Shown here piece after piece: positions 421-31,369 of a DNA stretch of 45,578 nt (the first letter of the stretch is position 1; each line of letters opens with the position of its first letter). The DNA comes from Octopus sinensis (Eukaryota). The DNA lies in the NCBI RefSeq assembly GCF_006345805.1, contig NW_021834806.1, forward strand, positions 1 to 45,578. The letters run 5' to 3'. The notes under the pieces are model-generated. The model was not told the DNA's origin. It was given only the letters and a program-made list of their open reading frames with translations, and made no database searches. The position numbers and the translations under genes were made by a program.

Positions 421-433
421 GTTACATTATTCG

Positions 434-509
434 ATAGTCAAGATAAAACTCTGAGTTTCAGATGCCGAAGTGGAAATCCACAACACCATCTCTTCGGTTA
501 TCTGGCTAT
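434..509 (-). ncRNA. Hammerhead-like motif (reverse copy of 848-923)
   Basis: Reverse complement of the 848-923 motif, inside the left arm of the inverted repeat. Confidence 0.5.
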
Positions 510-847
510 TTGAAAACGCTATGAAAAAATACCGTTATATAAAGGGAAATTACTGTGTTATAACTCTGCTTGCCTGCGTACTTATACATCGCTCGCATTT
601 TTCGTCATAAAAATTATATAAAAATACATAAATTTCTGTTACGTTTTTGGTCCCCTAAAGAAAACAAATAGAACATGCTTTCTATGTTATGTCCCAAGAA
701 GATTTTATATATTTTTATATACTTTTTATGTATTTTTATATAATTTTTATGACGAAAAATGCGAGCGATGTATAAGTACGCAGGCAAGCAGAGTTATAAC
801 ACAGTAATTTCCCTTTATATAACGGTATTTTTTCATAGCGTTTTTAA

Positions 848-923
848 ATAGCCAGATAACCGAAGAGATGGTGTTGTGGATTTCCACTTCGGCATCTGAA
901 ACTCAGAGTTTTATCTTGACTAT
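848..923 (+). ncRNA. Type I hammerhead-like ribozyme, variant core (U4C, extra U before GAAA)
   Basis: Stem I AGATAA(854-859)/TTATCT(911-916), extended by ATAG/CTAT. Core CCGAAGA(860-866). Stem II GATG..GTGGA-TT-TCCAC..CATC, then T-GAAAC-TCAGA-GTT (cleavage triplet GUU, 908-910). Confidence 0.55.
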
Positions 924-1014
924 CGAGTAATGTAACATATTATTGTATAGATACATTTCCTCTATTTACATAATATTGAGGTCTCTTTCTTTCTTTTGTT
1001 ATCTTACCGTTTTA

Positions 1015-1067
<53 letters not shown>

Positions 1068-1069
<2 letters not shown>

Positions 1070-1233
1070 GACGGGCTTCTTTCAGTTTCCGTCTGCTAAA
1101 TGCACTCACAAGTGTTGGGTCTGATAGAGGCTATAGTAGAAGACAATTGCCAAAGGTGCCACGCAGTGGAACTCGACCCAGAAACATGAGGTTGGTAAAC
1201 AAGCTACTTACCACACAGCCACGTCTACGCCTA
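1068..1233 (-). mobile_element. tRNA-derived SINE family A, 5' half
   Basis: Reverse complement of the 1702-1862 head (ggctgtgtggtaagtagcttg..ggttc(g/a)gtcccactgcgtgg..gacggaaactgaaagaagccc). Confidence 0.85.
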
Positions 1234-1241
1234 ATATATAT

Positions 1242-1285
<44 letters not shown>

Positions 1286-1416
1286 ACATATATATTATAT
1301 AGTAAATCATATTTACATATAGTAAATCCCAAAAATAACAAACACAAAAACACAACAATGCGAGAATGTGGTACATGTAAGGATTAAGCAGACGCTCAAG
1401 GAAGTAAATAAAGCTG

Positions 1417-1452
1417 GTTTAACGTTTCGAGCAGACGCTCTTCTTCAAAAAA
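1417..1452 (-). ncRNA. Minimal hammerhead motif (C3U, probably decayed) in a pLTR-like fragment at about 1300-1510
   Basis: Minus strand reads TTT-TTGAAGA-A-GAGC-GTCT-GCTC-GAAAC-GTT-AAAC, with palindromic stem III AACGTT. The flank is homologous to 31285-31369. Confidence 0.5.
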
Positions 1453-1701
1453 AGAGGAGAGTCGAATAGAAGGGAAAACGGAGGAAGAAAATCACCAACG
1501 ATTCTCATGAGCTTTATGTTCTTGCCAGTTTTTGATAGAAGTTATAACTTCTGATATTGGAATCTGTCTGAACCTCTCTCTGTCTCTCCTCCTCCCACAC
1601 AAACACTTGTTTTTCTAGCACAAGATATACAGTTACGCGAGCGCGCACACGCACATACATATATATTGCATACATACACACAATGCACACATGCATATAT
1701 A

Positions 1702-2040
1702 TAGGCGTAGGGGTGGCTGTGTGGTAAGTAGCTTGCTTACCAACCACATGGTTCCGGGTTCAGTCCCACTGCGTGATACCTTGAGTGTCTTCTACTATAG
1801 TCTCGAGCCGACCAAAGCCTTGTGAGTGGATTTGGTAGACGGAAACTGAAAGAAGCCTGACGTATATATATATATATGTGCGTGTTGACAACCGATGCTG
1901 GTGTGTTTACGTCCCCGTAACTTAGCGGTTCGGCAAAAGAGACCGATACAATAAGTACTAGGCTTACAAAGAATAAGTCCTGGGGTCGATTTGATCGATT
2001 AAAGGCGGTGCTCCAGCACATGACTGAAACAAGTAAAAGA

Positions 2041-2048
<8 letters not shown>
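1702..2048 (+). mobile_element. tRNA-derived SINE family A, near full length with internal (TA)n(TG)n
   Basis: A-box-like GTGGCTGTGTGG and B-box-like GGTTCAGTCC. Body and tail (cttagcggttcggcaaaagagaccgat..ggggtcgat..tgactgaaacaagtaaaaga) recur in the window. Confidence 0.9.
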
Positions 2049-2082
<34 letters not shown>

Positions 2083-3021
2083 ATATTTATGTACATATAC
2101 ATATATATGAATAGATGCATAGACTTTCAGTCATACAGTCATTCATACATGTATATATATACATATTGTGATGTAATACAGAATAAAATGAATCAACTTG
2201 AGTTGCAAAAAATGATGATGATAATGATAATGATGATGACGACTACGACGACGTCGATGATGTTAAGGCTGGCCATCACCTTCATATGTATAAAGTGTAT
2301 TACAATTATGGAAAACCTTCAAATAATAATGGTTGTCACTCTTTGTCCCTGCCATGATAAATTCGGAAGCTAATTCAATTGTTTTGAAGTTCTTCGAAGA
2401 TAATTTCATGCCTTTGGAGATAAACTACGTCTATTTTTCAGTAAATTGGTCCGTTTCTGACAATGACTGAATGCCTTATGCTTCTGGTCTTCAAAATGAA
2501 TTTCTATACTTTTTACATCACCTGATGAGATCTACAGTCCTCGAAACGGAACGCTATGCAGCCGAATACTTTTAACAGGATAATTTCACACTTAAAACCT
2601 CCATATCGTTTATCAGAAGTAAACTCTTTCCGCTTACTCCTTCACTATTTATGGACATCAATGACCAATTTTTATAAACATTTGTTGCGCGGGCAAGGAT
2701 CCAGTTCTTTTACTTTTTCTGTTTTTGAAAGTCTCAGGTGTAAGTTGGGAATAAGTCCACGAAAATGAAAATTTATAAAATTTACATAAACACATAAACA
2801 CATAAATACATTTATTGGTATAAAAGTAATTGTAAATATTTAAGTAAATTTCAGGTATACATGCGTGCGCATTTATACATGTATATATGTATGCATACAT
2901 ACACATTGTATATATATGTATCGTATTTGTGTGTACGTCCCCGTTTTTGTATTTTGCCACGGCCATAGTTTCCATTTACAAAACAAATTTTTGTATTAAC
3001 AGTGGATTTACTCTTACACAA

Positions 3022-3218
3022 TCTTTTACTTGTTTCAGTCATGTGACTGTGGCCATGCTGAAGCAGCGCCTTTAGTCGACCAAATCGACCCCAGGACTTA
3101 TTCTTTGTAAGCCTAGTACTTATTCTATCGGTCTCTTTTGCCGAACCGCTAAGTTACGGGGACGTAAACCAGCATCGGTTGTCAAGCGATCTTGGGGGAA
3201 CAAACATAGACACACAAA

Positions 3219-3305
<87 letters not shown>

Positions 3306-3467
3306 TACGACGGCTTCTTTCAGTTTCCGTCTACCAAATCCACTGACAAGGGTTTGGTCGGCCCGAGGCTAGAGTAGAAGACACTTGCCTAAGGTGTCAT
3401 GCAGTGGGACTGAACCCGGAACCATGTGGTTGGTAAGCAAGCTACTTACCACACAACCACTCCTACG
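3022..3467 (-). mobile_element. SINE family A, full length with long internal (TA)n(TG)n
   Basis: Reverse-complement match to 1702-2048 over both head and tail. Confidence 0.9.
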
Positions 3468-4097
3468 TAGAAACTTTAGACTCATTTTTTTCACGGAATT
3501 CAAACCTCTTCTATTTCATAAACCGATAAAATATAATAAATATTGGATATATATATATATATATATATATATTTCTGTGAAATAAAATGAAGGGCAATAC
3601 ATATATATATATATATATATATCAATATGTACTCAATATATTAACTCACAAACCATATTACACTAAAAATCACTTCTATGTATATGAGAGTAAATATGGG
3701 TTTGTATTTGTAGAGAATCTTTATAAAATTTCAAGTTTATAAGTACATCTCACCCTCTTCCCTTTCTCTTTTGCTTTCTCCCTCTCTCTATTTATCTATC
3801 TATCTATTTCTATTTCTATCTATTTCTAACTCAAATTTTACTTCTGTATATACTTCTGCTCCATCGTCTGCCTTCTCCCAGTTTATCTTTCTTTATCGTA
3901 CTTTACGTTATTTATTTCCCTGCTCTCCTGCCGTTCTCAGTCATTTCTCAGTGAGTGGTGGGTGTGGTACTATGATAATATGTGATGCATTTTAAAACGG
4001 TTTCTTGCTTATCTTTCAGTTGATGCATTTTATAGTGTGCATTTTGCGAACGATAGCGTTGTTAACTATCCGTTTATATATATATATATATATACAT

Positions 4098-4143
<46 letters not shown>

Positions 4144-4154
4144 GGGATCTCGAT

Positions 4155-4320
4155 AACTGGTATTAGTGTTGGTTACTTAACTGTTCGGCAAAAGAGAGCA
4201 ATAGGCTTTAAGAAAAAATAAGTCCCCAGATCGATTTGTTTAACTAAAACACTTCAAGGTGGTGCTCCAGCATGGCTGCAGTCAAATGATTGAAACGAGT
4301 AAGCAAGCAAAAGATAAAAT
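4155..4320 (+). mobile_element. SINE family A, diverged 3' half
   Basis: gttcggcaaaagagagcaata..aataagtccccagatcgattt..aaggtggtgctccagcatggctgcagtcaaatgattgaaac matches the family A tail. Confidence 0.7.
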
Positions 4321-4323
4321 ATA

Positions 4324-4400
<77 letters not shown>

Positions 4401-5024
4401 ATGAATGCATGTATGTATGTCAGCTATGACGCAGTCGGGGTAAATTTTAATTAAAACAGCCACCTATAAAACACATTTAATGTATACGTAAGAAATACGT
4501 ATCGAAGTAACTTGCTTATCGATAGTCTGGGTACATTAAATATGATATAGCTGGCTATTTTAATTAAATACTGTGGACTAAACATTCATCCACATTTGAA
4601 TTGCCTATAACGGGTTTTAATCAGCCAGGCGGCTCCTCACATCATCATTCGATATTTACACTTTTTCCTATATCAGCGGATATAAATTCGTATCCGAGCA
4701 CGTGGATGACTGCGAGTATGCACCATTGACAAGGCACAAAAAGGTTGAATTGCATCTGACGCTCACGCTGGCTGCTGCTTTGACGAATGCTTGTCTCTCG
4801 CTCTTTGGGGTTAATTGTGTTTTTAATGCAGCAAGTCCATAGGAAATGTTATCTCTGGACAAATACTGCCTATCGAGAGTCTGTATACATTTAGCATGAT
4901 ACAAAGATGAGTATATTTGTGCGTTCACGTGTGTCAATATGTATGTAAGTATATATATATATATTTGTGTATATGTGCGGGTGTGTATATAATTGTGTGC
5001 CGTGTATGTATAAATATTTCGTAC

Positions 5025-5087
5025 GTACATACATACATACATACATACATACATACATACATACATACATACATACATACATACATA
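5025..5087. repeat. (TACA)n microsatellite
   Basis: Seen directly; similar tracts at about 5690-5827 and 6490-6560 (TATG). Confidence 0.95.
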
Positions 5088-6294
5088 CGTTCAGATATGC
5101 TTGCCTGCCTCCATAATAACTAAATACATAATTTTTTGTCCAGTGAAGACTGAAATAAAATTCAAGACTACCAGACCAAACATAATGATCTGAAACAGAG
5201 GAAAGAAATTATGCTGATTAGCAAATGTTAACAAAATGCTGAACGTTAATGAAAAAGAAAGCATTTATCCCAAACTGAAGATACATTCTTAGATACTCCG
5301 ACCGGACTACAGTTTTAGATTTCTACCCATAATTATTGCTTGGCCAATCTTGAGAAGCTACGTTTTACAAAAGCATGAAGTACAAACATAGTCAAGTGAT
5401 TGCAGCTGAAAGCCATCAACAGCACTACTAAATTATGCAACACAGTCAAGAATTTTGGGGTGTGATAACTCCGTGCGTGTGTGTATGTGTGTGTGTGTGT
5501 GTGTGTGGGGGGGGTCTGTGTGTGTGTGTGTCTGTCTGTATCTGTATTAAGGATATCATTGGTTCATGTTAAGAAATGCCTCAACAATCACTCGAGCCTA
5601 TCACAGAAAAATCGTTGTTCATCTCCATTTGGGATTAATCCACAAATACATACATAAATACACACATACACACACACGCGCGTGTACACACACACATACA
5701 TACATACGTACGTACATACATACATACATACATACATACATACATACATACATACATACATACATACATACATACATACATACATACATACATACATACA
5801 TACATACATACATACATACATACATACAACGTTCTATGAGAGAATTTAGTTGCATAAGGCGCAGCACCGCGGGATCGAACCGCACACTGAGAGGGACGTG
5901 GTTGCAAACCGAATTTCACAAATGCACGAAATAATCTTACTTTGGAATGAGCTACTAATAAAATTACCAACAATTTTTTTTTTAGGTTGTCAAAGGAAGA
6001 AACAGCTATGATGGAGCCTATCATAATTCAAAATCTTTGCACTTAGTGTTTCACGAAGGACTTATATTTACTGGCCTACTTATTTGATATATGATAAAGA
6101 AGGTCAGCCTATTCAAGTAAGTTCTCAGTGAACATGACTTTATGTATGGTACATATAACCACACCTACTAAAACGATCTCCAAAACAATGATGTTGGCAG
6201 ACAAGGCCTTCCAGCTTCCATATTGAACAATGCCTATTCAACTTCATAAACAGTCTACGTTGGAAACTGAGAAGTTTATGGCAAATGAGAAGCA

Positions 6295-6412
6295 TGTTAC
6301 TTTTTTCAGTCATGGCAATGCGGCCATGCAGGAGCAACACCGTGAATGGTTTTAATCCAGCAAATAAAGTATCGTGTTTATTTTTTTCGGTCTCTCTTGC
6401 CGAACCGAAGCA
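6295..6412 (-). mobile_element. SINE family A, diverged tail fragment
   Basis: ttcagtcat..gcggccatgcaggagc..tcggtctctcttgccgaaccg matches the reverse of the family A tail. Confidence 0.55.
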
Positions 6413-6559: not shown

Positions 6560-8125
6560 GTATAAGATCAGCTTTAATGCGTATTAACAAACCATGTTCC
6601 AAAGATCTCAAATTAAGACTGATTGCAGCAAGCTTATCTGTGAAACTCATAGACTATGTAACTTTATTGATATATTCCTAAACATCGTTCTTAAACATAT
6701 ATCCTGCTTCATAAGAGCTGACTTAGACTTTCTACGCCATCTTCCGATTAAAACCCACGAAAGACTCTGTGTCATATGATGTAGTACATGTCTACACTAC
6801 GATTCCACATGAATACGAAGTAGAATCTATAAAATTCTGGTTGGAAAAACTCCCAAGCAACCCACCTGAACGAATTAAGAAAATATTTATCATTGAAGGA
6901 TTAATTTATCCTACTAAACAACCTTTCCCGTTTGAATCACATCTAAAAATAGTTATCAGGGACTACGCTGGACACGAAAATAGCTCCCACGTTTGTAAAT
7001 CTGGTTACGGCAAACTTAAAAGTATGCCACGTATACAAGCATTTCAGATAAAAATTCCTCCATAAATACCTATTCACCAGCTGAAAGCACTACTTGAACG
7101 ATTGTTTCATCACGTGGACGCGCAAATTGGATCAATACTATGAGTTTAAAACTCGAATAAATAGCATATATCTCAGTATCCAATTTGCAATGGAATATAA
7201 TTAAAAAGTAACTATTCTGCTTAGACATCTTGATCATAAAAAGAAATACGAATGTTAAACTGACATCCATTTCAAACCAACAGACACGCAAACATTATCT
7301 GCAATTTAAAACATGCGAAATTATATATACACAACCAAGCACGAAGAATCTGCGAAATTTTATGCAAATCCAATACCCAAGAGGAACAACTTGTAAAACT
7401 TAAAAGTATATGACTTGAATAAGAATACCTTATAATCTTAATCAATAACAGAATAGAACGTATAAAACGATAGACGCACAAGAATTACGAAAAGCAAGAA
7501 ACATCCCTAGTACACTCAATACTTTACTTCACTAACACAATTCGAGGACTACAGAAGCATACATCATTTGCTGGGGTGTTTCATTTTTGGTGAACACTCC
7601 CCGACTGATAAAGGCACTCAAAATTCACAAAATTATTAAAAGTAAAAGACAACCAGTTTTTTTAATACTTACAAGCACCAAACTGCGCACCAAAAATGCA
7701 ACTTCAGTAGTCCAAAAGAGTAACTACTTACTTTAGTTGTGGCACCTGCATCAATCTCACTGGGATTTCAGTGTGCGAATTTAAATCATGAAAAATATTT
7801 ACCATAAAAGACGTTTCACTTGTGCATCAAGAAATTTAATTTGCTATTAAATCCAATGGGTGTGATAAAGATTACCTAAGATAAATAGGATATAACTCTG
7901 AGGCACAAAATGACTAATCACCGTCAACAGATAAGAGACCACACTACCAGAAGAAATATACATGTTACTAAACAGATCTATACTAGATCTATATACAAAA
8001 CCAAACATCTCAAATACAAAAATTTTGTCTTTATATTAATATATCGGGAACACTCTAGCTCAATTCCGATTACATAAGGAAAATACGCTTATTAATAAAC
8101 ATAAACAAAAGCTTAATACTCTATA
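6560..8125 (+). pseudogene. Decayed Penelope-like retroelement ORF: reverse transcriptase followed by C-terminal GIY-YIG endonuclease
   Basis: Frameshifted motifs in the expected order: DLKLRLI, ETHRLCNFIDIFL..FIRADLDFLRHLP, SYDVVHVYTTIPH (RT A), GTTLDTKIAPTFVNL (RT B, about 6959-7003), HYLNDCFITW (YLDD-type, about 7088-7117), LDILIIK, a CGTC linker, FTCASRNLIC and LRHKMTNHRQQIRD (GIY-YIG region). Many stops. Confidence 0.85.
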
Positions 8126-8330
8126 ACGACATGATAGAATGAGGAAATACAGTATATTGGGCTCAACTAAGCAAAAGTAAAAAATGTAAATCAAAAGTTG
8201 AGGTAACAAGCTTCTTCCTAAATTACGGTATGATTACGTTTTTTTTTTTGACACGGCTAGCATCAACCTAAATTGACGAATTGGATTATGATTTTGGTTA
8301 AAATCGGACACTGAGAATAAAAGAGAAAAC

Positions 8331-10289: not shown

Positions 10290-10586
10290 CACCGTGACCG
10301 ACAGGCTATCAGATGTTGCTACACATCGCTGGTCACAATCCGCTTGGCATTGTTTTAGCTTTCAATGAGACCACCCCCGCTGGCTAAGCGAGCAGGCCAA
10401 CAGAAGAAAGAGTGAGAGCCAGTTGTAGCGAAAGAGTAGAGCAGAGATCGCCACCACCCTCTGCCGGAGCCTCGCGGAGCTTTAGGTGTTTTCGCTCAAT
10501 AAACATACCTAACGCCCGGTCTGGGAATCGAAAACGCGATCCTACGACCGCAAGTCCGCTGCCCTAACCACTGGGGCATTGTGCCT

Positions 10587-10590
<4 letters not shown>
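10289..10590 (-). mobile_element. tRNA-derived SINE family R, full length, tail type 1
   Basis: Minus-strand head tggaggcacaatgccccagtggttagggcagcggacttgcggtcgtaggatcgcgttttcgattcccagaccgggcg has A/B boxes and is near identical to the head at 44802. The tail is shared with 232-420. Confidence 0.9.
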
Positions 10591-11872: not shown

Positions 11873-12127
11873 TATTGCATTTGAATAATCGGCCTCCAGC
11901 CATGCCAGAGCATTGCATTCAAGGATTTAGTGAAGAAAATTGGTCCTTGCATTTATCTTAAACTGGTACTTATTGTAAACAATAGTTTTGAATCACTGTA
12001 TGACAAAGAGTATATATAACATAATGGATTTTGTAAAGCGGTCTAAACTTAAGCAAAAGGATGGACGCAGAAGCTCATACATACAAACATGTACACACAC
12101 ATATATACCGTATATATATATATATAT

Positions 12128-12360
12128 TAAAAATGGGAAAGTCCGGTTTATGGGATTGCCTTAGGTTTCTCATCCTTAGAGGATTTAGCCTTATGGCGTA
12201 TCGTCAGATCACAAAACCTGTTGGCTCAAGACCTTTCAAAAATATGGAGGAGGAAATCTTGGACCAACAGGTTTTGGAATCTGACGATACGCCACAAAGC
12301 TAAACCCTTTAAGGACGAGAAAACTAAGGTAATCCTCTAGACCGGCCTTACCCACTTTTA
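12128..12360. mobile_element. Imperfect inverted repeat (arms of about 104 bp) of an HHR-like pLTR fragment
   Basis: taaaaatggg..atcgtcagatc..cctgttggctcaaga (12128-12231) versus tcttggaccaacagg..atctgacgat..cccactttta (12257-12360). The left end abuts (TA)n. Confidence 0.75.
12270..12343 (+). ncRNA. Hammerhead-like motif with branched or long stem II (second copy at 12145-12218 on the minus strand)
   Basis: GGTTTTGGAAT-CTGACGA(12281-87)-[31 nt with two small hairpins]-GAAA(12319-22)-ACTAAG-GTA-ATCC..GACC. The other arm reads GAAACCTAAGGCA-ATCCCATAAACC. Confidence 0.4.
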
Positions 12361-13049: not shown

Positions 13050-13125
13050 TATATAATATATAATATATATATTATATATATATATAGTGCATCTGTGCAT
13101 TTGGCAAAAAAAATTACCAACACGA

Positions 13126-13169
13126 AATACAACAATCTGTGTTTCAATACGCGGTTCACATCAGGTATC
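13126..13169 (-). ncRNA. Degenerate hammerhead motif
   Basis: Minus strand GATAC-CTGATGT-GAACCGCGTATT-GAAAC-ACAGATT-GTT-GTATT, with stem I ATAC/GTAT. A9 is mutated and stem II is weak. The 3' end runs into (TA)n at about 13086. Confidence 0.3.
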
Positions 13170-13292
13170 TTGCAAGACAAATTCATAAACGTTATATAGA
13201 TATATATACATTCAGCTGAATATGGTACTTTATTTGAGGCACCAGAATTTAGTAGGGTATTATCCATGCAATTTCAAAGTAAGGTGATTAAA

Positions 13293-13377
13293 ATCAAAAT
13301 AAGCAACAAGGATGTCCAGAAATAAGGCAGTACGATCGTACTGCATTACCTCTGGATATCCTTGTGCTTATTTTGAT
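13293..13377. repeat. Spacer-less palindrome of about 85 bp centred on GCAGTACGA|TCGTACTGC
   Basis: atcaaaataagcaacaaggatgtccaga..gcagtacga / tcgtactgc..tctggatatccttgtgcttattttgat, followed by (TA)n. Confidence 0.85.
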
Positions 13378-13429
<52 letters not shown>

Positions 13430-15702: not shown

Positions 15703-15941
15703 CGCCTGTGTATGCATGTATGTATGTATGTATGTATATATGTATGTGTGTGTAATATGCACGCACATACACTCTATAAACATAAAGCTATACATACATA
15801 CATACATACATACATGCATACACAGGCATATGTACGTACATGCATACGTACATACATACACACATGTATGCATACATACACACATACATACGTACATATA
15901 TATGACGAACTAACTGTTACTTTCTCAGATGCAGCACGGAC

Positions 15942-15991
15942 TTTGTCAGTGAACAGGTCGCGGATTTTAGCGACGAAAATATTTTGACAAA
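15942..15991 (+). ncRNA. Type I minimal hammerhead with G3:C8 swapped core
   Basis: Stem I TTTGTCA(15942-48)/TGACAAA(15985-91). Core GTGAACA(15949-55) plus G. Stem II GTCGC/GCGAC. GAAA(15975-78)-ATAT-T-T with palindromic stem III AAATATTT. The element continues about 140 nt into (TA)n at 16131. Confidence 0.6.
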
Positions 15992-16129
15992 TTAAACTTA
16001 AATGTTGAAGTGAATCGAACGGCTTTTGTGTGTTTCTTAAATGGCTTATAAACACCTTCCAAGCTGCAATTGTTTTCGTTTCAGCACACGATCTCAGATC
16101 AAATTACTTGCTATGCGAGTACATCTCCG

Positions 16130-16170
<41 letters not shown>

Positions 16171-16312
16171 CGCATGTATTAACAATTTTTCTGAATTTTC
16201 AGATTTTTCTATATGCTAGGCTACTGGTTTTAAATTGATATTTATTAAATTAATATTCAATTTATCACCCTCATTATTTAAATTATTATATATATATATA
16301 TATATATATATA

Positions 16313-18075
16313 CTCTATACCGTAAGGACCATAAACCCTATGTAAACCCTTTTACGGAGCCCCCAACCCGGCCAATTTGCGGTGCGAATATCTCCAGCAA
16401 TTATAGGCTATCCTACTTCCTCTCACACGTGTTACGAGCACTCATTGAAATGTCCCCAGATGTCTGGTTGAGCTCGGAGGATCTCCTCAGTAGAATCAGT
16501 AGTTGCAACCACCGCAACGACCTCACAGGTTGTGTAGTGAGGTAGGATGGATGTAGTTTCGCTCTACCCAGCTATAGACGTAGATTTTGCTGTGGAAAAA
16601 TGCATTGAGATTATTTGTGAGAGTGAAGTAGAGTTTCGTGAAGTCAACACGAGGAACCTGGGCCCATTCCTTAAACTAAGCTATGACTGTAACTACCTAG
16701 ACAATCATGATCTTAGTAGGTTCTGCCCTACCAGGTCACAGAGAGGAAAACCACCCACCATCACCTCGGCCGGGAAGAAAAGCACCGCAGAGCGCTGGAG
16801 TGGCTAGATCATAAGCACCCAGAACCCTGAGAACAACAGTCAGGTGAAAAGAATGACTGCACATGCTTATAGGGGATAGCAAAAGAAATACATAGTAAAG
16901 TTTAACAGGAAACTATACATGCCGGTTCAAGGTGCAGCCATTAGTGTCGCTGTGGCTGGAGATGTGGTCGGCCACTTCATGACCTGGTGGGACAGAAAAC
17001 TTAAACAGTCCTTAAATAATCTACAACTGTTTTGCTTTACTGTATGTATGAAGCTGACATTAATATCATAGTTAAGACAAACTCTAGTAACTGTAATATA
17101 GAAACCGAGTGGAGCATAATGGAGAGCATCCAGCACGTAGCTAACGCCATCCACGAAAGTATGAAGGTAGCTATAGATTACTCCACTTGGCACCACAACA
17201 ATAGATTCCCTGTCCTTGATACTGAACTTGTTGAGAGATTGTGAACAACAGTGTGCAGCTCCTCCACTCCTGTTACATGAAACCCATAGCTTCTAAACAT
17301 GTTGTTCAAAAGAATTCAGCTTTGTCACACGACGTGAAAATCAACATACTGATACCAGATTTAGTTAGCACAATGAACAACGTGTCCCCATTATGCAAAC
17401 CCTATGAAACAAAGAAACATGCAGCTCTTTGGATATGACCAGAAATATAGGGTTCGGGTATACAGGGGAGCTAGAAAGAACTTAGCATTATATGTAATGA
17501 AACCAGTGTTACCTGCCCTATATATATATAGAAGTAAAGACCAGAATAGGATACAAAGAGTTTGTGATAAAACAAACAAGGTGAACAAGACCGACAAATA
17601 TCAAGGAACGATGTTTGTAAAAGCCACAACCCATTGAGAACTAGCCCGAAGATTTGGGAAAGCTCTGGATCGTTGAAAAGCCAGGGAGCTCCATCAGATT
17701 ACAATTATGTAGGACGTACCTCTTTGAGAATACTACATGAACCAATGATAATTGCACGGTGTGTAAGATTAACCATGGCATTAATTGTAGAACTCGAAAT
17801 GTAGTCTGCAGCTTAAGGTGCTTAGAGTGTGCTTGCAAAGACAAGAACATGATATTAAAAGGTGAGACATCTAAAAGCATTGCGGAGAGACTAAATAGAC
17901 ATTTGAGACAATATGACGGCAAAAAACACTCCTCCATAGTCTACAAAGATGCCAAAGGCCAACATGGAGGCACACTGGGTCAACATTTTATCCAAGCACA
18001 CGAAATACCCAACACTCAGACAAATACAGCAATACGTCCTCATAAATGAAACATCCCTAATACTAAATAGGAAAT
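16313..18075 (+). pseudogene. Second decayed Penelope-like retroelement ORF (RT, Cys linker, GIY-YIG), from a different family than 6560-8125
   Basis: PPTRPICGAN, MDVVSLYPAID (RT A), KFNRKLY..QGAAISVAVAGDVVGHFMTWWDRKL (RT B), YCMYEADINI (YVDD-type), DYSTWHHNNRFPVLD, YMKPIASKHVVQKNSAL, CTVC..CRTRNVVCSLRCLEC..LKGETSKSIAERLNRH (GIY-YIG). Contains stops and frameshifts; 5'-truncated next to (TA)n. Confidence 0.85.
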
Positions 18076-18693
18076 ATACGTAGAAGGTAGTCATACCCCA
18101 ATACCAACAGTTTATATATACACAGGTAGAGTTGTTAGTAGGCTGTTATGTAGATGTGTGTGTGTGTGTGTGTGTGTGTAAAAATGGATATGTAAGTAAA
18201 CAGATAGATAAATAGATAGATAGATAGGTTCTTAGGGTGAATTTTAGAAAACCTGGCCTGATACGAAAAAGAAAATGAATAAAAATCCCCTCGGAGAATT
18301 CAAAAGCGTGCAAATAAGTTCCGTAGATATCAATATGTCAATATAGGGGTTATAAACTTGCAAATATCTTATAATGTTGTCATTACTACTTTGTCGAACG
18401 TTTTAGTAGAGATATAACGAGAGAGAGAGAGAGTAAAGAAGAAAGACAGGGGTGAAAGAGAGAGTCAGAGGACAGTGAAAGAGATGTGCGTTTCTTAGAG
18501 TGAGACAATAAGTTTCATATGGGAATTTGAATATGCAAATAGAGAAATCTTTAATTAGGAAATAGATATATCATTTAAGACGCCATTTCCACCAATGGCG
18601 ACAATTGGAGCAGAGGATTGTCACATTCATTTATATTTGTTATTTTAATAAATTCTACCCTTCTACTCTCTTTATATCCGCTCCCTCCCACCC

Positions 18694-18727: not shown

Positions 18728-19232
18728 TTCTCTCTCTTTCTTCTTTTCTTTATCGCCCCTTCTCTTTCGTTCACCCCCCCTCTCGCTCTTTCACCCGCCT
18801 TTATAATGAGTGTAATATTAAACTAATTTTAAAATAAAACAAACTGCTAAACCATTTAACTGCCAAGTGTTACAGCATCGTATTTCAGAATATTTAGCCA
18901 ACTGTTGCGCGCCAGAAAATATGTTAGTTTGCAATTTTTGCATTGCTACGAAATGTACCAGCCATTTAAACAGATTTTTGCTTATGTACGTCATGTTAAA
19001 AGACTGCATATAACTTCGCACACACAAACACACACGAAGGTGGCGGGTATGTCTGTACCAGCGTTTATCGCGTTTCAGTGCAGAATCCGTTGGTTATTTT
19101 ATTTGTTGCGGCCGTCATGATATCCGAGCCGACAACGTCGCGCCGTCTGACATTCTAGGTCTATCACAGTTAACCGAGTCCCAATGACTATATTTCTCGC
19201 GGCAAGGACACTGGTGACTACTATTACTGCGG

Positions 19233-19465
19233 AAGGCGGCGAGCTGGCAGAAACGTTAGCACGCCGGGCGAAATGTGTGGCCGCATTTCGTCTGCCGTTA
19301 CGTTCTCAGTTCAAATTCCGCCGAGGTCGACTTTGCCTTTCATCCTTTCGGGGTCGATAAATAAAGTACCAGTTTCGCACTGGGGTCGATGTAATCGACT
19401 TAATCCCTTTTTCTGTTCTTGTTTGTCCCTTTTGTGTTTAGCCCCTTGTGGGTAGTAAAGAAATA
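19233..19465 (+). mobile_element. SINE family B, full length
   Basis: aaggcggcgagctggcagaaacgttagcacgccgggcgaaatg..gttcaaattccgccgaggtcgactttgcctttcatcctttcggggtcgat..ccccttgtgggtagtaaagaaata. Highly similar to 26160-26395 and 32739-32974. Confidence 0.92.
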
Positions 19466-19480
19466 TATACATTTATTTGT

Positions 19481-20604: not shown

Positions 20605-20846
20605 GTCCACTCTCTCCATCAAATCGACGTTGCCTGAACAGGTGCACGATGTACCACGCGTCAGGTATTGAAGTGATAGCAGTGACGTGAGACGAAGAGT
20701 TTTGCTCCAAGTCAAATTTTGCCAAAAGGTTGGCGATACCTGCTCAGAGACCTACGCAGAATGTGTGTGTACATGTGTCTTTACATTATATCATATATTT
20801 AAACCCATCAGTGGACTACAGTAGTCAATACATCCTTCCTCTTTTC

Positions 20847-20918: not shown

Positions 20919-21093
20919 GTTTAGAGCATTGCACTCACGATCTTGAGATTGTGGTTTCAGTTCCTAAACCAGATGGTGCGTTGTGACTTGGAACAAAACA
21001 CTTCGTCTCACGTCTCTGCGATCACTTCGATACCTGTCGCGTGGTATATCGTGCACCTGTTCAGGCAACGTCGATTTGATGGAGAGAGTGGAC
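20605..21093. repeat. 110-bp inverted repeat (20605-20714 / 20984-21093) formed by SINE family D sequence
   Basis: About 7 mismatches by manual alignment. The right copy is preceded by a decayed tRNA/CORE-like head (about 20918-20990). Confidence 0.85.
20711..20761 (+). pseudogene. Very short mariner transposase N-terminal HTH fragment
   Basis: Translates VKFCQKVGDTCSETYAE, resembling the mariner N-terminal pattern IKFCxKLGxTxxETY. Confidence 0.45.
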
Positions 21094-21152
21094 TGCTACT
21101 CTAGGCCGATGAAGGACAACGATCCTGAAACACGGTGTCCCTAGATGCAGTT
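21091..21152 (+). ncRNA. Type I hammerhead ribozyme, extended stem I, U4C core variant
   Basis: GACTGC-TAC-TCTAGG-CCGATGA(21106-12)-AGGA-CAACGA-TCCT-GAAAC-ACGGT-GTC(21137-39)-CCTAGA-T-GCAGTT. All three stems pair; GUC cleavage triplet. Confidence 0.75.
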
Positions 21153-21372
21153 CCGGCGGCCGGGGGTGTTTGTCTCCCCTTCGTATATGTATATAAGGAC
21201 ACAGGGAAAAAAATGTGTCAAAGCTATCAGGAGGCGTTCGATGCTTCCTAGGGCTATACAGCGGTGGTGTACCCCCTACTGTCACTTTCTTGTTAGATTG
21301 ACAGTATACAACCATTCTATCGCCCCACCACCGTACATGTCTCTACGAGAGATTTAGAAATTCAATATTTCT

Positions 21373-21377
<5 letters not shown>
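21091..21377 (+). mobile_element. Short non-coding HHR-headed element (pLTR or retrozyme-like) ending in (TA)n
   Basis: HHR at the 5' end, about 225 nt of unique tail, then (TA)n from about 21377. Confidence 0.5.
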
Positions 21378-21416
<39 letters not shown>

Positions 21417-21425
21417 TATATATAT

Positions 21426-21455
<30 letters not shown>

Positions 21456-21461
<6 letters not shown>

Positions 21462-22965
21462 TAAATATTAGGGAATATATCCAAATTTACAGGGAAAAAA
21501 ATCAGATTTAGGATTAAATCCAATTTTATAGTAAAATATTATAAAATATTATTTGAGACAAAACCACTATTTTGCAAAACAAACAAGGAAAGACTTAATC
21601 AATACATAAATTTAATAAATAGTCAAAAAACCGCCACTACAATCGTTTCTTGTCTTGATCGACAATCTTCAGGTGGACTTCCAATCTAAAAAATCAAAAT
21701 TTAAAATATAAAAATAATACTTTTAAATAATTAAAGTATAAATGAAAAAATATAAGTATATAATCCATATATAACCTATATATAATCCATATCGAAAATA
21801 TAGACTAATTACCACGAATTCCCTAAAAAAACCATGATAAAACAAAACTCTTAAAAACATATAACGATAAAATCTCCCTTTGCTAAACTCTATAACAAAC
21901 CTATAAAGTAAACCCCCTAACCTAAACATTCACACACAAATACACACACGTAAACCACAGACTCACGACTTATACACATACCTATACTAACTTATAAACC
22001 TCAATATACACCAAAACCCACTCCCTCCCCACACAGACAAATTAACACATACATCCCAAAACCTAAATAACAAACCCATATACACATTCACACACAAAAC
22101 ACACACTCACACGCAAAACACTCACACACAAAAGATACATATACTCCCTCACATATACGCCTATACATACTCACTAAAACTCGACATATACAACAATACT
22201 TACACACCCACAAAAAACATTATATACATTTATGAGCTTTAACTCACCTTAGCATCTCTAACAAACAACTTGCAGTAACCCAATCCCATTCTCTATGCCT
22301 ACCTCACTACTACACTATTCCATTCACATTCCAAGCAACGCTAGTCCACCACCCGGTTATTCACGTGGCAAAACGAACACCACTCAAAAATTATGAATGA
22401 AACAATGTAAAAAAATAACCAACACCTAAAATAGACAAAATACCACGAATTACCTAAAAAAAAAAAAAAAACCATGATAAACCAAAACTCATAAAAGCAT
22501 ATAACGATAAAATCTCCCTTTGCTAAACCCTATAACAAACTTATATAGCAATCCCCCTAACCTAAACATTCACACACAAAAAACCCACACGTAAACCACA
22601 GACCCAAGACTTATACACAAACCTATACTAACTTATAAACCTCAATATACACCAAAAACCACTCCCTCCCCACACAGACAAATTAACACATACATCCCAA
22701 ATCCTAAATAACAAACCCAAATACACATTCACACACAAAACACACACTCACACGCAAAACACTCACACACAAAAGATACATATACTCCCTCACATATACG
22801 CATATACATACTCACTAAAACTCGATATATACAACAATATTTACACCCACACTCATACAGATAAATAAATTAATTATACAATAAAAACTCACAACCATCT
22901 CATTGATTAAGTCTTTCCTTGTTTGTTTTGCAAAATAGTGGTTTTGTCTCAAATAATATTTTATA
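21456..22965 (-). mobile_element. About 1.5-kb non-coding HHR element with a partial inverted terminal duplication and an internal direct repeat, flanked by (TA)n
   Basis: 64-bp inverted repeat 21540-21603 / 22902-22965, direct repeat of about 400 bp (21810-22211 / 22441-22850), HHR at 21634-21676, strong A/C strand bias and no meaningful ORF. Confidence 0.7.
21634..21676 (-). ncRNA. Canonical-core type I hammerhead ribozyme
   Basis: Minus strand CCAC-CTGAAGA-TTGTC-GATCAA-GACAA-GAAAC-GATT-GTA-GTGG. Intact CUGANGA/GAAA core with stems I, II and III paired. GUA site; predicted cut between 21638 and 21637. Confidence 0.85.
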
Positions 22966-23789
22966 TATATATATATATATATATGGCCCAGAGCAAGCTA
23001 TAAGAAGTTACACAAGCACTCAGCTCGGAGTTCACTGCTTCTTATAGCAGAAACATTTGTAAGCTATTGTAGATGATTAAATGACTCTTGTTCTCGTAAC
23101 TAATACATCTGGCTGAGTGTGTTGTGTGTGTGTGTGTATGTGTGTGTGTGCGCGCGCGCCTGCATGTGTGTGTGTATGTGTGTGTTTGTGTGTGAGTGTG
23201 TGTTTGTGTGTGCGTGCGTGCATAAAACACATATCAAGTAGAATAAGACAGTAGCTAGAAATTCCTGGTGACGGAACGGAAATGAGATGATGCAATATTC
23301 TTGCTATTACTTGCAGCGAATTTATTACGCAATGGGTGGGGAAAGCGAAATAATTCTAAACAGAACTCGACACTGCGTCACAGAATCGGTTCAGCGGAGA
23401 GAGGTAAGGGCGGGAGATTACATCTTACCGAATTAAAGCTAGTTGTATTTCGATTGTGAAACACTTAAGGATTAAAATCGTTTAATAAAATTATTGAAGT
23501 GAAAACAAACTTTAGAAGTTAACATGTAGATAATTTTTAAGTAAATGTTCAAATGTTATTAAAACGAACAAAACAAAGGAAACAAAAACATGGTAAAAAA
23601 CAACACTCGATCCCCTTAAAAAATTAAAAAGTATTTTCTCACAAGAATCGTGAGATTTTTGTTTGATAGGCGGGAAAATCCTTCAACTAGAACAGAAACT
23701 ACACGAAAATATTTTTGCACCGTTGCGATTAAGAAAAAAAACAGCCATTGGAATGCAGACGGGGGGGGGGTAGCTCACATTACACCGCA

Positions 23790-26159: not shown

Positions 26160-26395
26160 ACCTATTTCTTTACTACCCACAAGGGGCCAAACACAGAGAG
26201 GACAAACAAGGACAGACAAACGGATTAAGTCGATTACATCGACTCCAGTGCGTAACTGGTACTTAATTTATCGACCCCGAAAGGATGAAAGGCAAAGTCG
26301 ACCTCGGCGGAATTTGAACTGAGAACGTAACGGCAGACGAAATACTGCTACGCTTTTCGCCCGGCGTGCTAACGTTTCTGCCAGCTCGCCGCCTT
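26160..26395 (-). mobile_element. SINE family B, full length
   Basis: Reverse complement of the 19233 and 32739 copies. Confidence 0.92.
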
Positions 26396-26417
26396 TTTAT
26401 TTTTTAAAGTAGGCTTT

Positions 26418-26492
26418 CCCGTACGCGTAGGACTCGAACTTATATCCCTTTGTTAACGTGACTAAATGTGTTACCGATTAGACCAGTGAACC
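26418..26492 (-). pseudogene. tRNA-like remnant or SINE head
   Basis: A-box-like TGGTCTAATCGG and B-box GTTCGAGTCC at tRNA-like spacing, but the acceptor and anticodon stems do not pair. Confidence 0.4.
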
Positions 26493-27109
26493 AGTCTGTC
26501 CATCACGCAAAATACCATCTACCAAATTTCACTTATTAGGCTTTAGCTGACGCGCGACTAAGATAGAAAAATACATTTCTTTTATTTTTTTCTTCTTTTT
26601 GCCTGAAGTGTAATATTTTTAAAGAATATAGAAAGCAGGACGTTGTGATATTGATGCAGTTCTCTAAATCATTAATAATGGTAAAAGAGATTTATCAGTT
26701 TCAACAGCTACTTTTGTTTTGGTGAGAAACGAACAGCAATTTGGCGGGGTTTTTTTTTCTCCTAATTTTCGTATGAGAAGTGGGGAAAAGAAATGGGAAA
26801 GAGAATTTTGGTGAGAGTGACACTTGTATAGTTCACAGACGGAATTTCATTTCTCCTCAGATTGGCACGACCAAATGTCAACATAAGTACAGGTTTAAGA
26901 ACACTGTGAAGTTGATGGACACATTTCTGTAGGAAATGTAGAAATACAAAAATATGTAATAAAATGAAACAGGCATAAAAAAAAAATTACACGGTTGATC
27001 CGACCCTTAATACTGCTTTTCTCTTATTTCCTATGTGTGACTAATTCTTGAAACATCAGAAAGTACTTGAATAATCAGATGTTAAGTCAAGACTGAGAAC
27101 TATCATCCA

Positions 27110-27160
<51 letters not shown>

Positions 27161-27741
27161 AGCCAATGAAAGAACGGAAATGGTGGGTTCCCTTACAAAA
27201 TATGAGATGTCGTAGATCTGATTCGAAATGATTTGAAAAATAATATAACAAAAAATGAAAACAAGAAGATTTGGAATTTCAATGTTAAATTCTTATATTT
27301 TAATGGCCTTCTTGATTTCTTCCTAAATACTTCCTTGTGTGTACATTAGTTTCTTTTTCTTTTCTTTTTTTCTCACATTATCGATGTTGAGACAAAAGAG
27401 TAAGCTGACTTCCAAACCCGATGGCCCTTAGGGACTTCACTGAAAATATTTTCTTCGTGTAATTTAGTCGAGAACCTACTATTATTACTTAGTGTAAGTC
27501 AATCGAGAACCTACTATTATTTCCTACGCTATACACTCTGAACGACTTAAAAAACGTCACTATTATCCATATTGACGCCTTCACCATTGGTAGGAATCGA
27601 ACTATGTATACGTGATCCGAATAATTTGCAAAAAAATGTACACGGCTAAAAAAAAATGCTCAGAGGACCAGGATCGGACGATGTTATTAAACCGAGCTTT
27701 AGATTAAATCTAGCACTCAGTGATATGAGTGGTCTATCCAT

Positions 27742-27885
27742 CGGGCTTCCGTACTGTTTCCGTCTCCTAGTTTCTGTCTCACTAGGCTTCGATTGGCCCG
27801 AATCTACAGTAGAAGACAAGTGCACAGTGAGCATGAAACCTAAATAACATAGTTGAGAAGCGAATCAATTTAACCCTTCAACCAT
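27742..27885 (-). mobile_element. SINE family A, old 5' half
   Basis: cgggcttcc..tgtttccgtct..ggcccgaatctacagtagaagaca resembles the 1068-1233 copy. Confidence 0.6.
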
Positions 27886-28828
27886 ATCTGCACAACACAG
27901 CTGAAGTAGAGTAAAGCACTAAAAGCTGAGGGCAACTAATAACGTTCAGCGTCGACAAAGTTTGACAAATGATTTTATAGAGTGAGAAAGCAGGGTAATT
28001 AACTTGGGGTAACAAGCAGGAATTGAAACCAGCTCCCCCAAAATTTACTTCTTAGTTTATGCTACTCGACTCCTTTGAATGTTACCAACTATAAATCTAA
28101 GTTGCTGGCTGAATTCTTTGACATCCATTTTTCATATCCGGCTCATTAGCTTAACTGAACGTGGACTGGAAGGGTTGTGAATAAAAGGAATACCGGATGG
28201 ACCCCCTTCCATCGGGCATGAAATTACTTGTCAGTCAATGGACGCTCGGCTAAAGATGGACACTTCTGTATGCGTGCGCGCGCACTCACACACACATAAA
28301 CACACACACACGCACATACACACGCACAGACACACACACACACACACACGCACACACACACACACACACACATACACAGAGACGTGTTCCCGCTGCAATC
28401 ATAAGACGATAAGAAAACAGATTAAGGGGAAAAATTGAAATAAAATCTGGCACTGACAGGGACAATTCCCAAATAGACTTCCAGCTGTTGTTAGTCTACT
28501 GCTACTGCTGCTACTACTGCTACCAACACCACCACTACCACTACTACCGCTTCTGTTGCTAATGCAGCTAATGATGGTCATAATCATGATGTAGCCCCGT
28601 TTCATACATTACAGAGTTGAGGTTCACTTTGTGTCACTCCTACAACCTGTGGCAACCATATTTTACGTCAAAACAACCACATTTCCTCTCTTATCCTACC
28701 TTAAGCATAAAACTTGTATTCTAACAAATCTAACTGGCACTATTAATTAAAAGCAACTAAGCGACCTGAGTCAACGGTTTACATGCGACCGCTGGTTGAG
28801 TACAGTTCTCATTATTTCATATCGATAC

Positions 28829-29440
28829 AGGCGGCGAGCTGGCAGAACCGTTAGCACGCCGGGCAAAATATTTAGCGGTATTTCGTCCGTCTTTACGTTC
28901 TGAGTTCAAATACCACCGAGGTTGACTCTTACTTTCATCCTTTCGGATCGATAAAATAAGTAACAATTGAGCACGGGGAACGATGTAATCGACATTTGTC
29001 TCCCTTCAAAATCGCTGACATTATGCCAAAGTGATAAAGGATTATTATATATCGTTAAAGGTGCTATGTTGGCAGAACAGTTAGCACGCCGGACAAAATG
29101 CTTAACAGCATTTCTTTCCGCTTTACTTTCTCATTTTAAATGCTGCTGAGGCTGACTTTGCCTTTCATCCTTTAGGGGTTGATAAAATAAGTAGAAGTTC
29201 AGCACTGATGCCCATGCAATCAACTAGACCCTCTCCTCGAAATTTCAGGTCATGTGAAGTAGAAAGGGTTATTTCATATAGTTTATATTATAGGCATAAG
29301 ACCTGAAATTTACATTGACTCCGGTGTGCAACTGGTATTTATTTCATCGACCCTGAAAGGATGAAAGATAAAGCTGATCTCGTCGGAATTTGAACTCAGA
29401 ACTTAAAGACGGACGAAATGCCGGTAAGATCGCCGCCTTA
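28829..29440. mobile_element. Cluster of SINE family B copies: 28829-29045 (+), 29058-29275 (+), 29288-29440 (-)
   Basis: Repeated ggcagaa..gttagcacgccgg..aaatg..ctttcatcctt..gataaaataagta and its reverse complement. Confidence 0.8.
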
Positions 29441-30259
29441 GAATTATGACATATCGTTAACGATTTCGGTAAAAATATTAAACACTACCATATCCCATTT
29501 TGACTCCCGGCCACCCAGTTAATCTTAGAATTTTAACCTAAACGAACGAAAATTATTATTTGCTAAAACGGGTTCATTGTGGCTCAAAGAAAGAAATGTA
29601 AGATGTTGAAAGTGGCTTTCCCAGTTGTGAGCCCATTGGAATTGTTATATGATTAATTCGTCATATAACAGATATCATAATAGGACAGACATCAGTAAGA
29701 AAGTAGGGAAATGGAAACTAAACAGATCTACATACATAGAAAATCTGTTGGGAAAATACAAAACAATAGAGACATAGAGAGAGAGAGAGGGAGGGGAGGA
29801 GAGATGTATGTATGCACACACACACACATATATATATATAGGCATATACACATACATGCACTCACACACACAAGCATATATGTACGTACGTGTACACACA
29901 TACGTACAGCTATGCACACGGACATGTAGATGGTGGAAGAAAGAAGACTGGAACGGAAATATGTGTCAAGTCCTTAGTACCGAATTTTTCTCTACCATTT
30001 CACACCATCTGACCAACCACCTGTGACGACTTCTAACAATGATTCACTTAAAACTGAAAGAAGCAACTGAAAAAGCAATAACTAGGTCCTAATTATTATT
30101 ATGGGTAAGGATTGTTAGGATGGACGGAAGACTTAAGTGGAGATGATGCGTGGAAGAGATGGCTTGGTGACGATGGAGACGAGATGATGGAGAAGGCATC
30201 GAAAATACAAATAGAAGAGATACGCAGATAGAGGAATCTAAATATGGGCATATAGAGCA

Positions 30260-30290
30260 TATATTATATATATGTGTGTGTGTGTGTGTG

Positions 30291-30325
<35 letters not shown>

Positions 30326-30329
30326 CATC

Positions 30330-30426
<97 letters not shown>

Positions 30427-30500
30427 CTACATATATATAATATATATCATATATATATATATATATATACATATCTATATATATATATAACATATTATAC

Positions 30501-30555
<55 letters not shown>

Positions 30556-30695
30556 CTATATATATATATATACATATATATATATAATATATATACATCT
30601 ATATATATATACATATATATATATATATTATAAATATATATAATATATATTAAATATCTATATATATCTATTACATATATATATATATATATATA

Positions 30696-30758
<63 letters not shown>

Positions 30759-30762
30759 CATA

Positions 30763-30797
<35 letters not shown>

Positions 30798-30858
30798 ATA
30801 TATATATATATACATATATTATATATATATAATATATATATATATATAATATATATAC

Positions 30859-30909
<51 letters not shown>

Positions 30910-31052
30910 ACACATATATATATATATACATATTATATATATACATATACATACTTATATATATATACATATACATATAATACATATATATATATATACA
31001 TATATATATATACATATATCTACATATATATTATATACATATATACATATAC

Positions 31053-31084
<32 letters not shown>

Positions 31085-31185
31085 ATATACATATATATAC
31101 ATATATATAATATACATAAATATATATATATAATATAATATATACATATACAAATACATATATAGATAGCTAGATAGATAGATAG

Positions 31186-31279
<94 letters not shown>

Positions 31280-31282
31280 GAT
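30260..31282. repeat. About 0.9-kb interrupted (TA)n tract followed by (GATA)n
   Basis: Seen directly. Confidence 0.95.
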
Positions 31283-31335
31283 ATACATGGTGCATGCAAA
31301 GTATTAGCAGAGGCTCCGTGAAGGAAAGAAAGGTA

Positions 31336-31369
31336 GTTTTACGTTTCAAACAATTTCTTCGTCAGAAAC
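31336..31369 (-). ncRNA. Minimal hammerhead motif (same family as 1417-1452)
   Basis: Minus strand GTTT-CTGACGA-AGAAATTGTTT-GAAAC-GTA-AAAC, with stem I GTTT/AAAC, a palindromic ACGT stem III and a weak stem II. The 3' end faces the (GATA)n/(TA)n tract. Confidence 0.55.

Follow-up and report, generated by a model that had tools for sequence, protein, structure and literature searches.

Introduction

Minimal hammerhead ribozymes (min-HHRs) of metazoan Penelope-like elements (PLEs) are characterised by a palindromic helix III, a bulged base after A9 and a G10.1–C11.1 pair. Most are single and probably derive from truncated PLEs, and some form opposite-strand pairs 100–700 bp apart (Cervera and de la Peña 2014, PMC4209133). 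The present work concerns ten hammerhead motifs in the window, a stretch of 45,578 nucleotides of Octopus sinensis DNA (contig NW_021834806.1, positions 1 to 45,578). The motifs are probably the 3′ ends of several PLE families, left as 5′-truncated insertions in TA microsatellites. The least ordinary feature of the window, on which an earlier note made from the same sequence did not remark, is a compensated swap of a core base pair, G3–C8, in one of these families.

Insertions of PLEs are marked by 5′ truncation, an inverted partner, a tail of 30–40 bp at one end and a bias toward (TA)n microsatellites (Craig et al. 2021, PMC8557442). A reconstituted system has added cleavage of AT-rich DNA, two internal starts of reverse transcription that explain the tail, and protein-assisted hammerhead cleavage (Frangieh et al. 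2024, PMC11167929); in Poseidon PAc of Anolis, uncut RNA is the main template for insertion (PMC11167929). Non-autonomous derivatives of PLEs have also been described (PMC8557442; preprint 10.64898/2026.07.22.740005). A second kind of hammerhead repeat, the non-LTR retrozyme, consists of tandem units with hammerheads (PMC7229834; preprint 10.64898/2026.07.22.740005, Li, Clavereau and Pollet 2026).

Natural variants of the hammerhead core include the compensated U3–A8 pair and a viroid U4C of low in vitro activity; the section on core variation in that survey does not list G3–C8 (Perreault et al. 2011, PMC3088659), the pair found here as the norm in a very abundant animal repeat. For octopods, the repeat annotation of O. 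vulgaris lists active Penelope families, and the word "ribozyme" is absent from the accessible part of that report (PMC13282606). "Octopus" does not occur in the two of three supplement files of PMC4209133 that were searched.

Results

Ten Motifs in Excess of Chance

The window is AT-rich eukaryotic DNA, dense in microsatellites (228 tandem-repeat rows) and short interspersed repeats. All ten motifs of the earlier note are present at the positions and on the strands it gave (Table 1). They occupy eight loci and fall into seven families, and the earlier description as unrelated families is not supported. Motifs 1417 and 31336 (named by first coordinate; B and H below) are a single lineage (75% over 60 nt, E 5e-6), and four others are two duplicated pairs: 434 and 848 are the arms of one inverted repeat (212 nt, two differences), and 12145 and 12270 those of another (104 nt, 84%). 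The latter are an older pair, with arms that have decayed at differing positions.

A type I hammerhead descriptor that required helix III only at its first pair was scanned against 200 dinucleotide shuffles in which microsatellites were kept in place. With the canonical core, at least 4 bp in stem I and at least 3 bp in stem II, two matches were found (21672 and 31365, both minus strand) against a shuffle mean of 0.00. When one core change or a swapped 3–8 pair was allowed, the same stems gave 4 matches against 0.17, stems of at least 3 and 4 bp gave 5 against 0.21, and stems of at least 3 and 3 bp gave 8 against 0.51. At each setting the observed count lies above all 200 shuffles. The relaxations were picked after the motifs had been seen, and the loosest lets in noise, since it adds three unlisted matches (17634+, 29386− and 33540+).

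The hammerhead folds proposed earlier are mostly real: five of the ten motifs (1417, 15942, 21091, 21634 and 31336) satisfy some descriptor setting, and 21634 and 31336, with fully canonical cores, pass the strictest. Motifs 12145 and 12270 fail although CUGACGA and GAAA are intact, stem II being irregular and helix III having one lesion per arm; 12270 has every core letter. Motifs 434 and 848 fail through their core, CCGAAGA, and an additional U ahead of G12. The remaining failure, 13126, is weak, with A9U, just two perfect pairs in stem II and a forced fold of −0.7 kcal/mol. An eleventh hammerhead-like remnant, 2522–2560 (+), reads CUGAUGA ... GAAACG with G at 16.1 and poor stems, and also fails the descriptor.

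Families G and H and the right arm of C match CUGANGA ... GAAA ... NUH, and the left arm of C carries C at 16.1. The other families deviate from literal CUGANGA: A and F by U4C, each known from a single locus, B by C3U, D by A9U, and E by G3–C8, which retains a Watson–Crick 3–8 pair. Helix III is fully or 8/9 self-complementary in seven of the ten motifs (A and F 8/9, G 8/8, E 6/6, B and H 4/4), with 6/9 in both arms of C and 6/11 in D. An additional base after A9 and the G10.1–C11.1 pair occur together in B and E; H has the additional base with G–U, A has G–C with an additional base on the 3′ side, and F and G close with A–U or U–A.

A Swapped Core Pair in an Abundant Repeat

The family E motif has a stem I of 7 bp, a bulged G, a stem II of 5 bp that opens with G10.1–C11.1, loop II at 15962–15969, GAAA at 15975–15978, a palindromic AAUAUU helix III, UU at the cut and H17 at 15984. 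At the descriptor setting that it passes, shuffles yield 0.08 matches per window.

These features bear on the suggestion that the non-canonical families A, D, E and F are dead or chance look-alikes lying in repeats that resemble miniature inverted-repeat transposable elements or short interspersed elements (SINEs), and that true hammerheads are limited to G, B/H and perhaps C. Such a suggestion draws on the late relaxation of the descriptor and its noise at the loosest setting, on the weakness of D, and on the two departures that A requires. It also draws on the Rfam scan, where no hammerhead family appears among the 150 of 295 matches listed, those being microsatellite-driven microRNA, snoRNA and viral-UTR hits. 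The two stems and perfect helix III of E speak against it, as does the fact that E departs exactly at two mutually pairing bases. Moreover, A and F have U4C independently, each with a nearly complete self-complementary helix III. We consider this reading very improbable.

Public runs that contain 15903–18150 derive from four organisms. To compare copies across the family, contigs of four public runs from two organisms were aligned to 15903–16131 at 80% likeness, with a 3% threshold for variants; this comparison covers one of the seven families. Two DNA runs gave 17,126 and 10,534 records, and two runs guessed to be RNA gave 1,308 and 610. All are assembled contigs, which show neither strand nor RNA ends. 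The variant table is complete for the 17,126-record run (24 changes) and the 610-record run (31 changes). In all four runs no variant of at least 3% is listed at 15947–15961 or 15976–15986, and hence none at G3 or C8. The swap is thus not decay but characterises an abundant family, which received it from its source element.

Loop II is more variable than the core and stems, with five of eight positions varying against 6 of 42 (Fisher p 0.009), and it also takes insertions. The main variant in stem I, 15987 A>G (8–16%), retains a U–G pair, and four of the six variable core and stem positions are CpG sites. Loose ends, present in 109 to 11 records per run, reveal a second subfamily that combines this core with a different loop II. 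Coverage of the core reaches about one quarter of the peak depth; the variant table therefore speaks mainly for copies close to the one at 15942, and distant subfamilies may be missed. Summed depth reaches 4.4 million, against 33–67 for the long contigs listed; although not a copy number, this suggests a very large family.

Matches outside the animal repeat were also sought and set aside. A degenerate family E pattern was followed to 126 loci (at least 120 of about 190 in metagenomes, and 6 viral), none of which combines stem II closure with GAAA. Eight metagenome or viral loci give 25–27-nt matches that are forced by the pattern and were taken as chance, as were exact matches of a family E 19-mer in nine unrelated bacteria among prokaryote genomes. 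A 23-mer from downstream of the motif was found in no viral contig.

Lünse et al. 2017 is said to deal with hammerhead variants of PLEs. That work and Przybilski and Hammann 2007 could list a natural G3–C8 pair, which could also stand in supplement file 1 of PMC4209133 or figures S6–S7 of PMC3088659, outside the text searched; the literature within it gave engineered mutants only. In PAc, where the pair is engineered rather than natural, the C3G/G8C double mutant partly restores cleavage (PMC11167929), and a G3–C8 mutant is also the subject of an unpublished remark (PMC3884650).

Anatomy of the Insertions

Every motif belongs to a short fragment and lies close to its 3′ end, and most fragments adjoin (TA)n or (GATA)n. 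In families A, C and G a 5′-truncated copy has an inverted partner, and opposite-strand joints are present in family E contigs. A tail stands at one end only, with 81 nt in A and about 70 nt in G. Other copies of E stop near 16062–16073 and give way to TA- or AT-rich sequence (19, 25, 50 and 1 records with loose ends in the four runs), which gives this family an alternative end and a tail of about 60 nt; the two-end pattern agrees with the two start sites of reverse transcription in PMC11167929. A bias toward (TA)n or AT-rich targets is present as well, though common to other families too. These are the marks of truncated, inverted insertions of endonuclease-bearing (EN+) PLEs such as Neptune and Naiad (PMC8557442) and PAc (PMC11167929), and the link to PLEs drawn in the earlier note is upheld by them.

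All ten motifs retain sequence on both sides of the predicted cut, so the template that was copied must have been uncut or religated. As in PAc, the hammerhead lies upstream of the copying start and the template is uncut (PMC11167929). This is relevant to the notion, put forward in the earlier note, that short self-cleaving elements form a population of their own here, and to an origin from retrozymes, in which tandem units of 150–450 bp with a hammerhead are cut to monomers, circularised and reinserted. The fragments share with non-LTR retrozymes type I hammerheads inside non-coding repeats and kinship to PLE pseudo-LTRs (Cervera and de la Peña 2020, PMC7229834), and family E has a "goes back 105" joint in one contig in each of two runs. 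In contrast to retrozymes, none of the eight loci has a same-strand tandem or head-to-tail units, and paired motifs lie on opposite strands. In addition, retrozymes are tied to hammerheads of the canonical type (PMC7229834), and those of the window are minimal or variant. The inverted arms and the one-sided tails are instead the published signature of truncated PLEs, and a retrozyme origin seems highly unlikely.

One PLE coding remnant is confirmed in the window. It starts right after (TA)n 16287–16312 (Table 1), is recognised by tblastn at E 1.5e-61, and contains a read-through reverse transcriptase (RT) fragment that finds 203 relatives at E of 0.001 or less. By its layout, as described in PMC8557442, rather than by a tree, it is of Neptune/Nematis type. 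The earlier note had the motifs mobilised by PLEs decaying in the same window. This remnant lends that no support: it is broken, has no hammerhead downstream and has no blastn match with any hammerhead-bearing fragment. Word-index protein searches gave no match at threshold.

Two further observations concern the neighbourhood of this remnant and the coding content of the window. A 116-nt AT-rich fragment, 16171–16286, separates family E from the remnant, has a TA tract on either side, and is possibly the end of another family. At 6600–8200 (+), heavily broken frames have RT-like motifs by eye and possibly represent a second PLE clade; Pfam and a profile of 24 related proteins are blank there, the ESM Atlas leads, RVT_1 and HTH_animal, reach only 0.82–0.83, and the frames are not confirmed as a PLE.

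The scarcity of coding sequence also raises the possibility that some families, most plausibly E, G and A, are short non-autonomous RNAs, consisting of a PLE 3′ end and a hammerhead, that borrow RT and endonuclease in trans. The mechanism of insertion would be unchanged and only the parent would differ; this is the idea of the earlier note without the retrozyme circle. No coding sequence was found upstream of any motif, G has a 1.2-kb non-coding body with an internal duplication, and E is very abundant, with a summed depth that drops steeply 5′ of the motif. However, fragments in the window have ragged 5′ ends joined to unrelated repeats, as at the junction of F, and no start point shared by many family E records is listed among contigs, which cannot show RNA ends. 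Moreover, 3′ untranslated regions of PLEs can be long, so that short truncated copies need not reach the open reading frame (ORF). Non-autonomous parents are thus an unlikely explanation, though one to be taken more seriously than the retrozymes.

Orientation toward TA Tracts

The distances from predicted cut to the next downstream tract of at least (TA)5 or (GATA)3 are 244, 107, 141, 31, 684, 45, 148, 237, 183 and 63 nt. Nine of the ten cuts thus have a TA or GATA tract 31–244 nt downstream, against a background in which 20–24% of positions have a tract within 240 nt. Because the 240-nt limit and the choice of one arm from each pair in the earlier note were post hoc, a rank test on the six unpaired sites was used instead; the combined p is 0.009 downstream and 0.34 upstream. 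The claim that the motifs point into TA tracts therefore stands, and the orientation is real but modest.

It is not a property of hammerheads as such. A repeat without a hammerhead adjoins TA in three of three copies. A tRNA-headed SINE (10291–10590, 229–421 and 44803–44981, about 85% alike) has its tail end at or near (TA)n in two of three copies (2 and 42 nt), the third being a shorter match. A third repeat, at 19230–19470 and 12 other places (76–94%), serves as a negative control, as none of its 13 copies adjoins TA or comes within 300 nt of a tract. TA adjacency is thus a trait of some element families, and the motifs probably point into TA because target-primed insertion sets the geometry.

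Coordinates and Neighbouring Features

Boundaries of the fragments and motifs are collected in Table 1.

Table 1. Hammerhead-bearing fragments, their motifs and the PLE coding remnant in the window
Feature	Position	Strand	Description
Family A left arm, inverted insertion	421..632	−	Motif 434–509, core CCGAAGA at 497, H17 at 447; without tail, stops against truncated tRNA-headed SINE
Family A right arm and tail	725..1017	+	Arm 725–936, one-sided 81-nt tail 937–1017, then (TA)n 1018–1068
Family A motif	848–923	+	U4C core, additional U ahead of G12, long stem I, helix III 8/9 self-complementary
Family B/H fragment running into (TA)n	1293..1560	−	Outer boundaries approximate
Family B/H minimal motif	1417–1452	−	C3U, bulged A, 4-bp stem II, GAAA-CG-UU
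Family C inverted pair	12128..12360		Arms 12128–12231 and 12257–12360, 84% alike, 25-nt spacer; left arm adjoins (TA)n 12111–12127
Family C motif, left arm	12145–12218	−	Canonical CUGACGA/GAAA
Family C motif, right arm	12270–12343	+	Canonical CUGACGA/GAAA
Family D fragment adjoining (TA)n	13087..13190	−	Weak motif 13126–13169 (A9U, poor stem II); 5′ boundary approximate
Family E 3′ fragment of very abundant repeat	15903..16131	+	Adjoins (TA)n 16132–16170
Family E minimal type I hammerhead, swapped core pair	15942..15991	+	Core GUGAACA 15949–15955, G3 at 15949, C8 at 15954
Decayed 5′-truncated PLE ORF	16315..18074	+	RT motifs, Cys-rich linker, C-terminal GIY-YIG; frameshifted
Family F fragment	21091..21375	+	5′ end joined to other repeat via ~3-nt microhomology; 3′ end on (TA)n 21376–21468
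Family F motif	21091–21152	+	U4C core CCGAUGA, 6-bp proximal stem I, helix III 8/9 self-complementary
Family G insertion	21469..22961	−	(TA)n at both ends; canonical motif 21634–21676 near one end; tail of ~70 nt on that side only, at 21469; 425-nt stretch directly duplicated inside the insertion (92%); 69 nt of the 3′ end copied in inverse orientation at 22902–22970; no ORF of at least 100 aa
Family B/H fragment	31286..31400	−	Adjoins (GATA)n/(TA)n; minimal motif 31336–31369, canonical core, weak stem II; no defined 5′ boundary

Several other features lie near these fragments. A 110-nt inverted pair (20605–20714 and 20984–21093, 94%) flanks a TA tract, and its right arm is joined to family F via about three common bases. 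A short self-complementary element adjoining (TA)n, 13287–13380, stands just upstream of the weak motif of D. A degenerate (TA)n array of about 1 kb, 30296–31285, shades into (GATA)n and may contain an assembly error. Broken frames at 40940–41960 (−) resemble a Tc1/mariner-type transposase; Pfam gave only HTH_23 at E 0.15.

Discussion

The cluster is of a known kind, probably decaying PLE-type 3′ ends in TA microsatellites, and comes as no surprise where an animal genome contains much PLE debris. Like the min-HHRs of PMC4209133, the motifs are of type I with a tiny palindromic helix III and, in B, E and H, an additional base after A9, and are mostly single and dispersed, with many divergent families in one genome; A and C resemble the opposite-strand pairs of that study. 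The differences lie in the core and the helices. Where the published set shows U3–A8 covariation, one family here has G3–C8 and two have U4C, and in A, C and F stem I is longer and interrupted and helix III has 3 bp and a single base at its centre (PMC4209133). What exceeds the routine is the family-wide compensated swap in a very abundant repeat, together with U4C in two families.

The proposed route to these fragments takes its insertion mechanism from published PLE work. A PLE RNA would carry a minimal type I hammerhead at a distance of between some tens and a few hundred bases ahead of the point where copying of its 3′ end starts. The GIY-YIG endonuclease would nick AT-rich or (TA)n DNA, and the RT would use the nick as its primer and begin at either of two internal sites, a choice that would account for the optional tail. 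It would then copy back through the uncut hammerhead, usually halt within a few hundred bases and sometimes add an inverted second copy, so that geometry would turn the cut site toward the TA tract. Hammerheads with a self-complementary helix III would act as dimers, or with the help of protein, in a multi-copy precursor RNA, and the single genomic copies would mostly be decaying passengers. Family E would have received from its source element a C3–G8 pair swapped to G3–C8, a compensated change that would keep the tertiary base pair.

Several observations weigh against this account. Unlike the EN+ PLEs of PMC8557442 and PMC11167929, no hammerhead-bearing fragment in the window is joined to detectable RT or endonuclease coding sequence or to a direct pseudo-LTR with a hammerhead, and the direct duplication in G excludes its motif. 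The 24-protein profile matches only 16315–17977, though other clades may escape detection by it, and Pfam found no match on read-through frames upstream of or around 31336 and 2522. The 1.2 kb of non-coding sequence upstream in G is compatible with a non-autonomous element, and the tails, at 60–81 nt, are longer than the published ones. The lowest-energy fold pairs core bases in eight of the ten motifs, the exceptions being G and, nearly, E. In E, G12 decays at a CpG (15975 G>A, 3.5–11% in three runs and 1% in the fourth), and the core and stems are as variable as the downstream part (6/42 against 21/140, p = 1.0). Because they are no less variable, the family E data describe a fixed family trait, with no ongoing selection seen. 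Because no motif is joined to a detectable PLE ORF, the link from motif to autonomous parent is an inference, as are the descent of each family from a PLE and, separately, any activity as a ribozyme.

On balance, truncated PLE 3′ ends remain the probable origin of the cluster. A bolder proposal, which we put forward tentatively and hold at somewhat below even chances, is that E is a many-copy repeat mobilised by PLEs whose source had a working, natural G3–C8 hammerhead, and that A and F represent another natural class, marked by U4C and a dimerising 3-bp helix III.

The family-wide swap is of interest because it bears on what PLE hammerheads do. In one reconstituted PLE, cleavage is not needed for insertion in vitro (PMC11167929), and a passenger role has been suggested as possible for PLE ribozymes (PMC8557442). 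Two transversions that fall precisely on a pair of core bases are the trace that selection on an active fold would leave, and family E offers a ready natural substrate for testing the role of these hammerheads. If the G3–C8 and U4C classes do work, C3 and U4 would be dispensable in animal PLE hammerheads, and censuses based on CUGANGA would overlook some of the most abundant ribozyme families here, so that descriptor-based genomic counts would be too low. The natural swap would then be evolutionary proof of past selection on the 3–8 tertiary pair, and hence on the active fold, in a PLE, and such selection would have acted although cleavage is dispensable for insertion in vitro.

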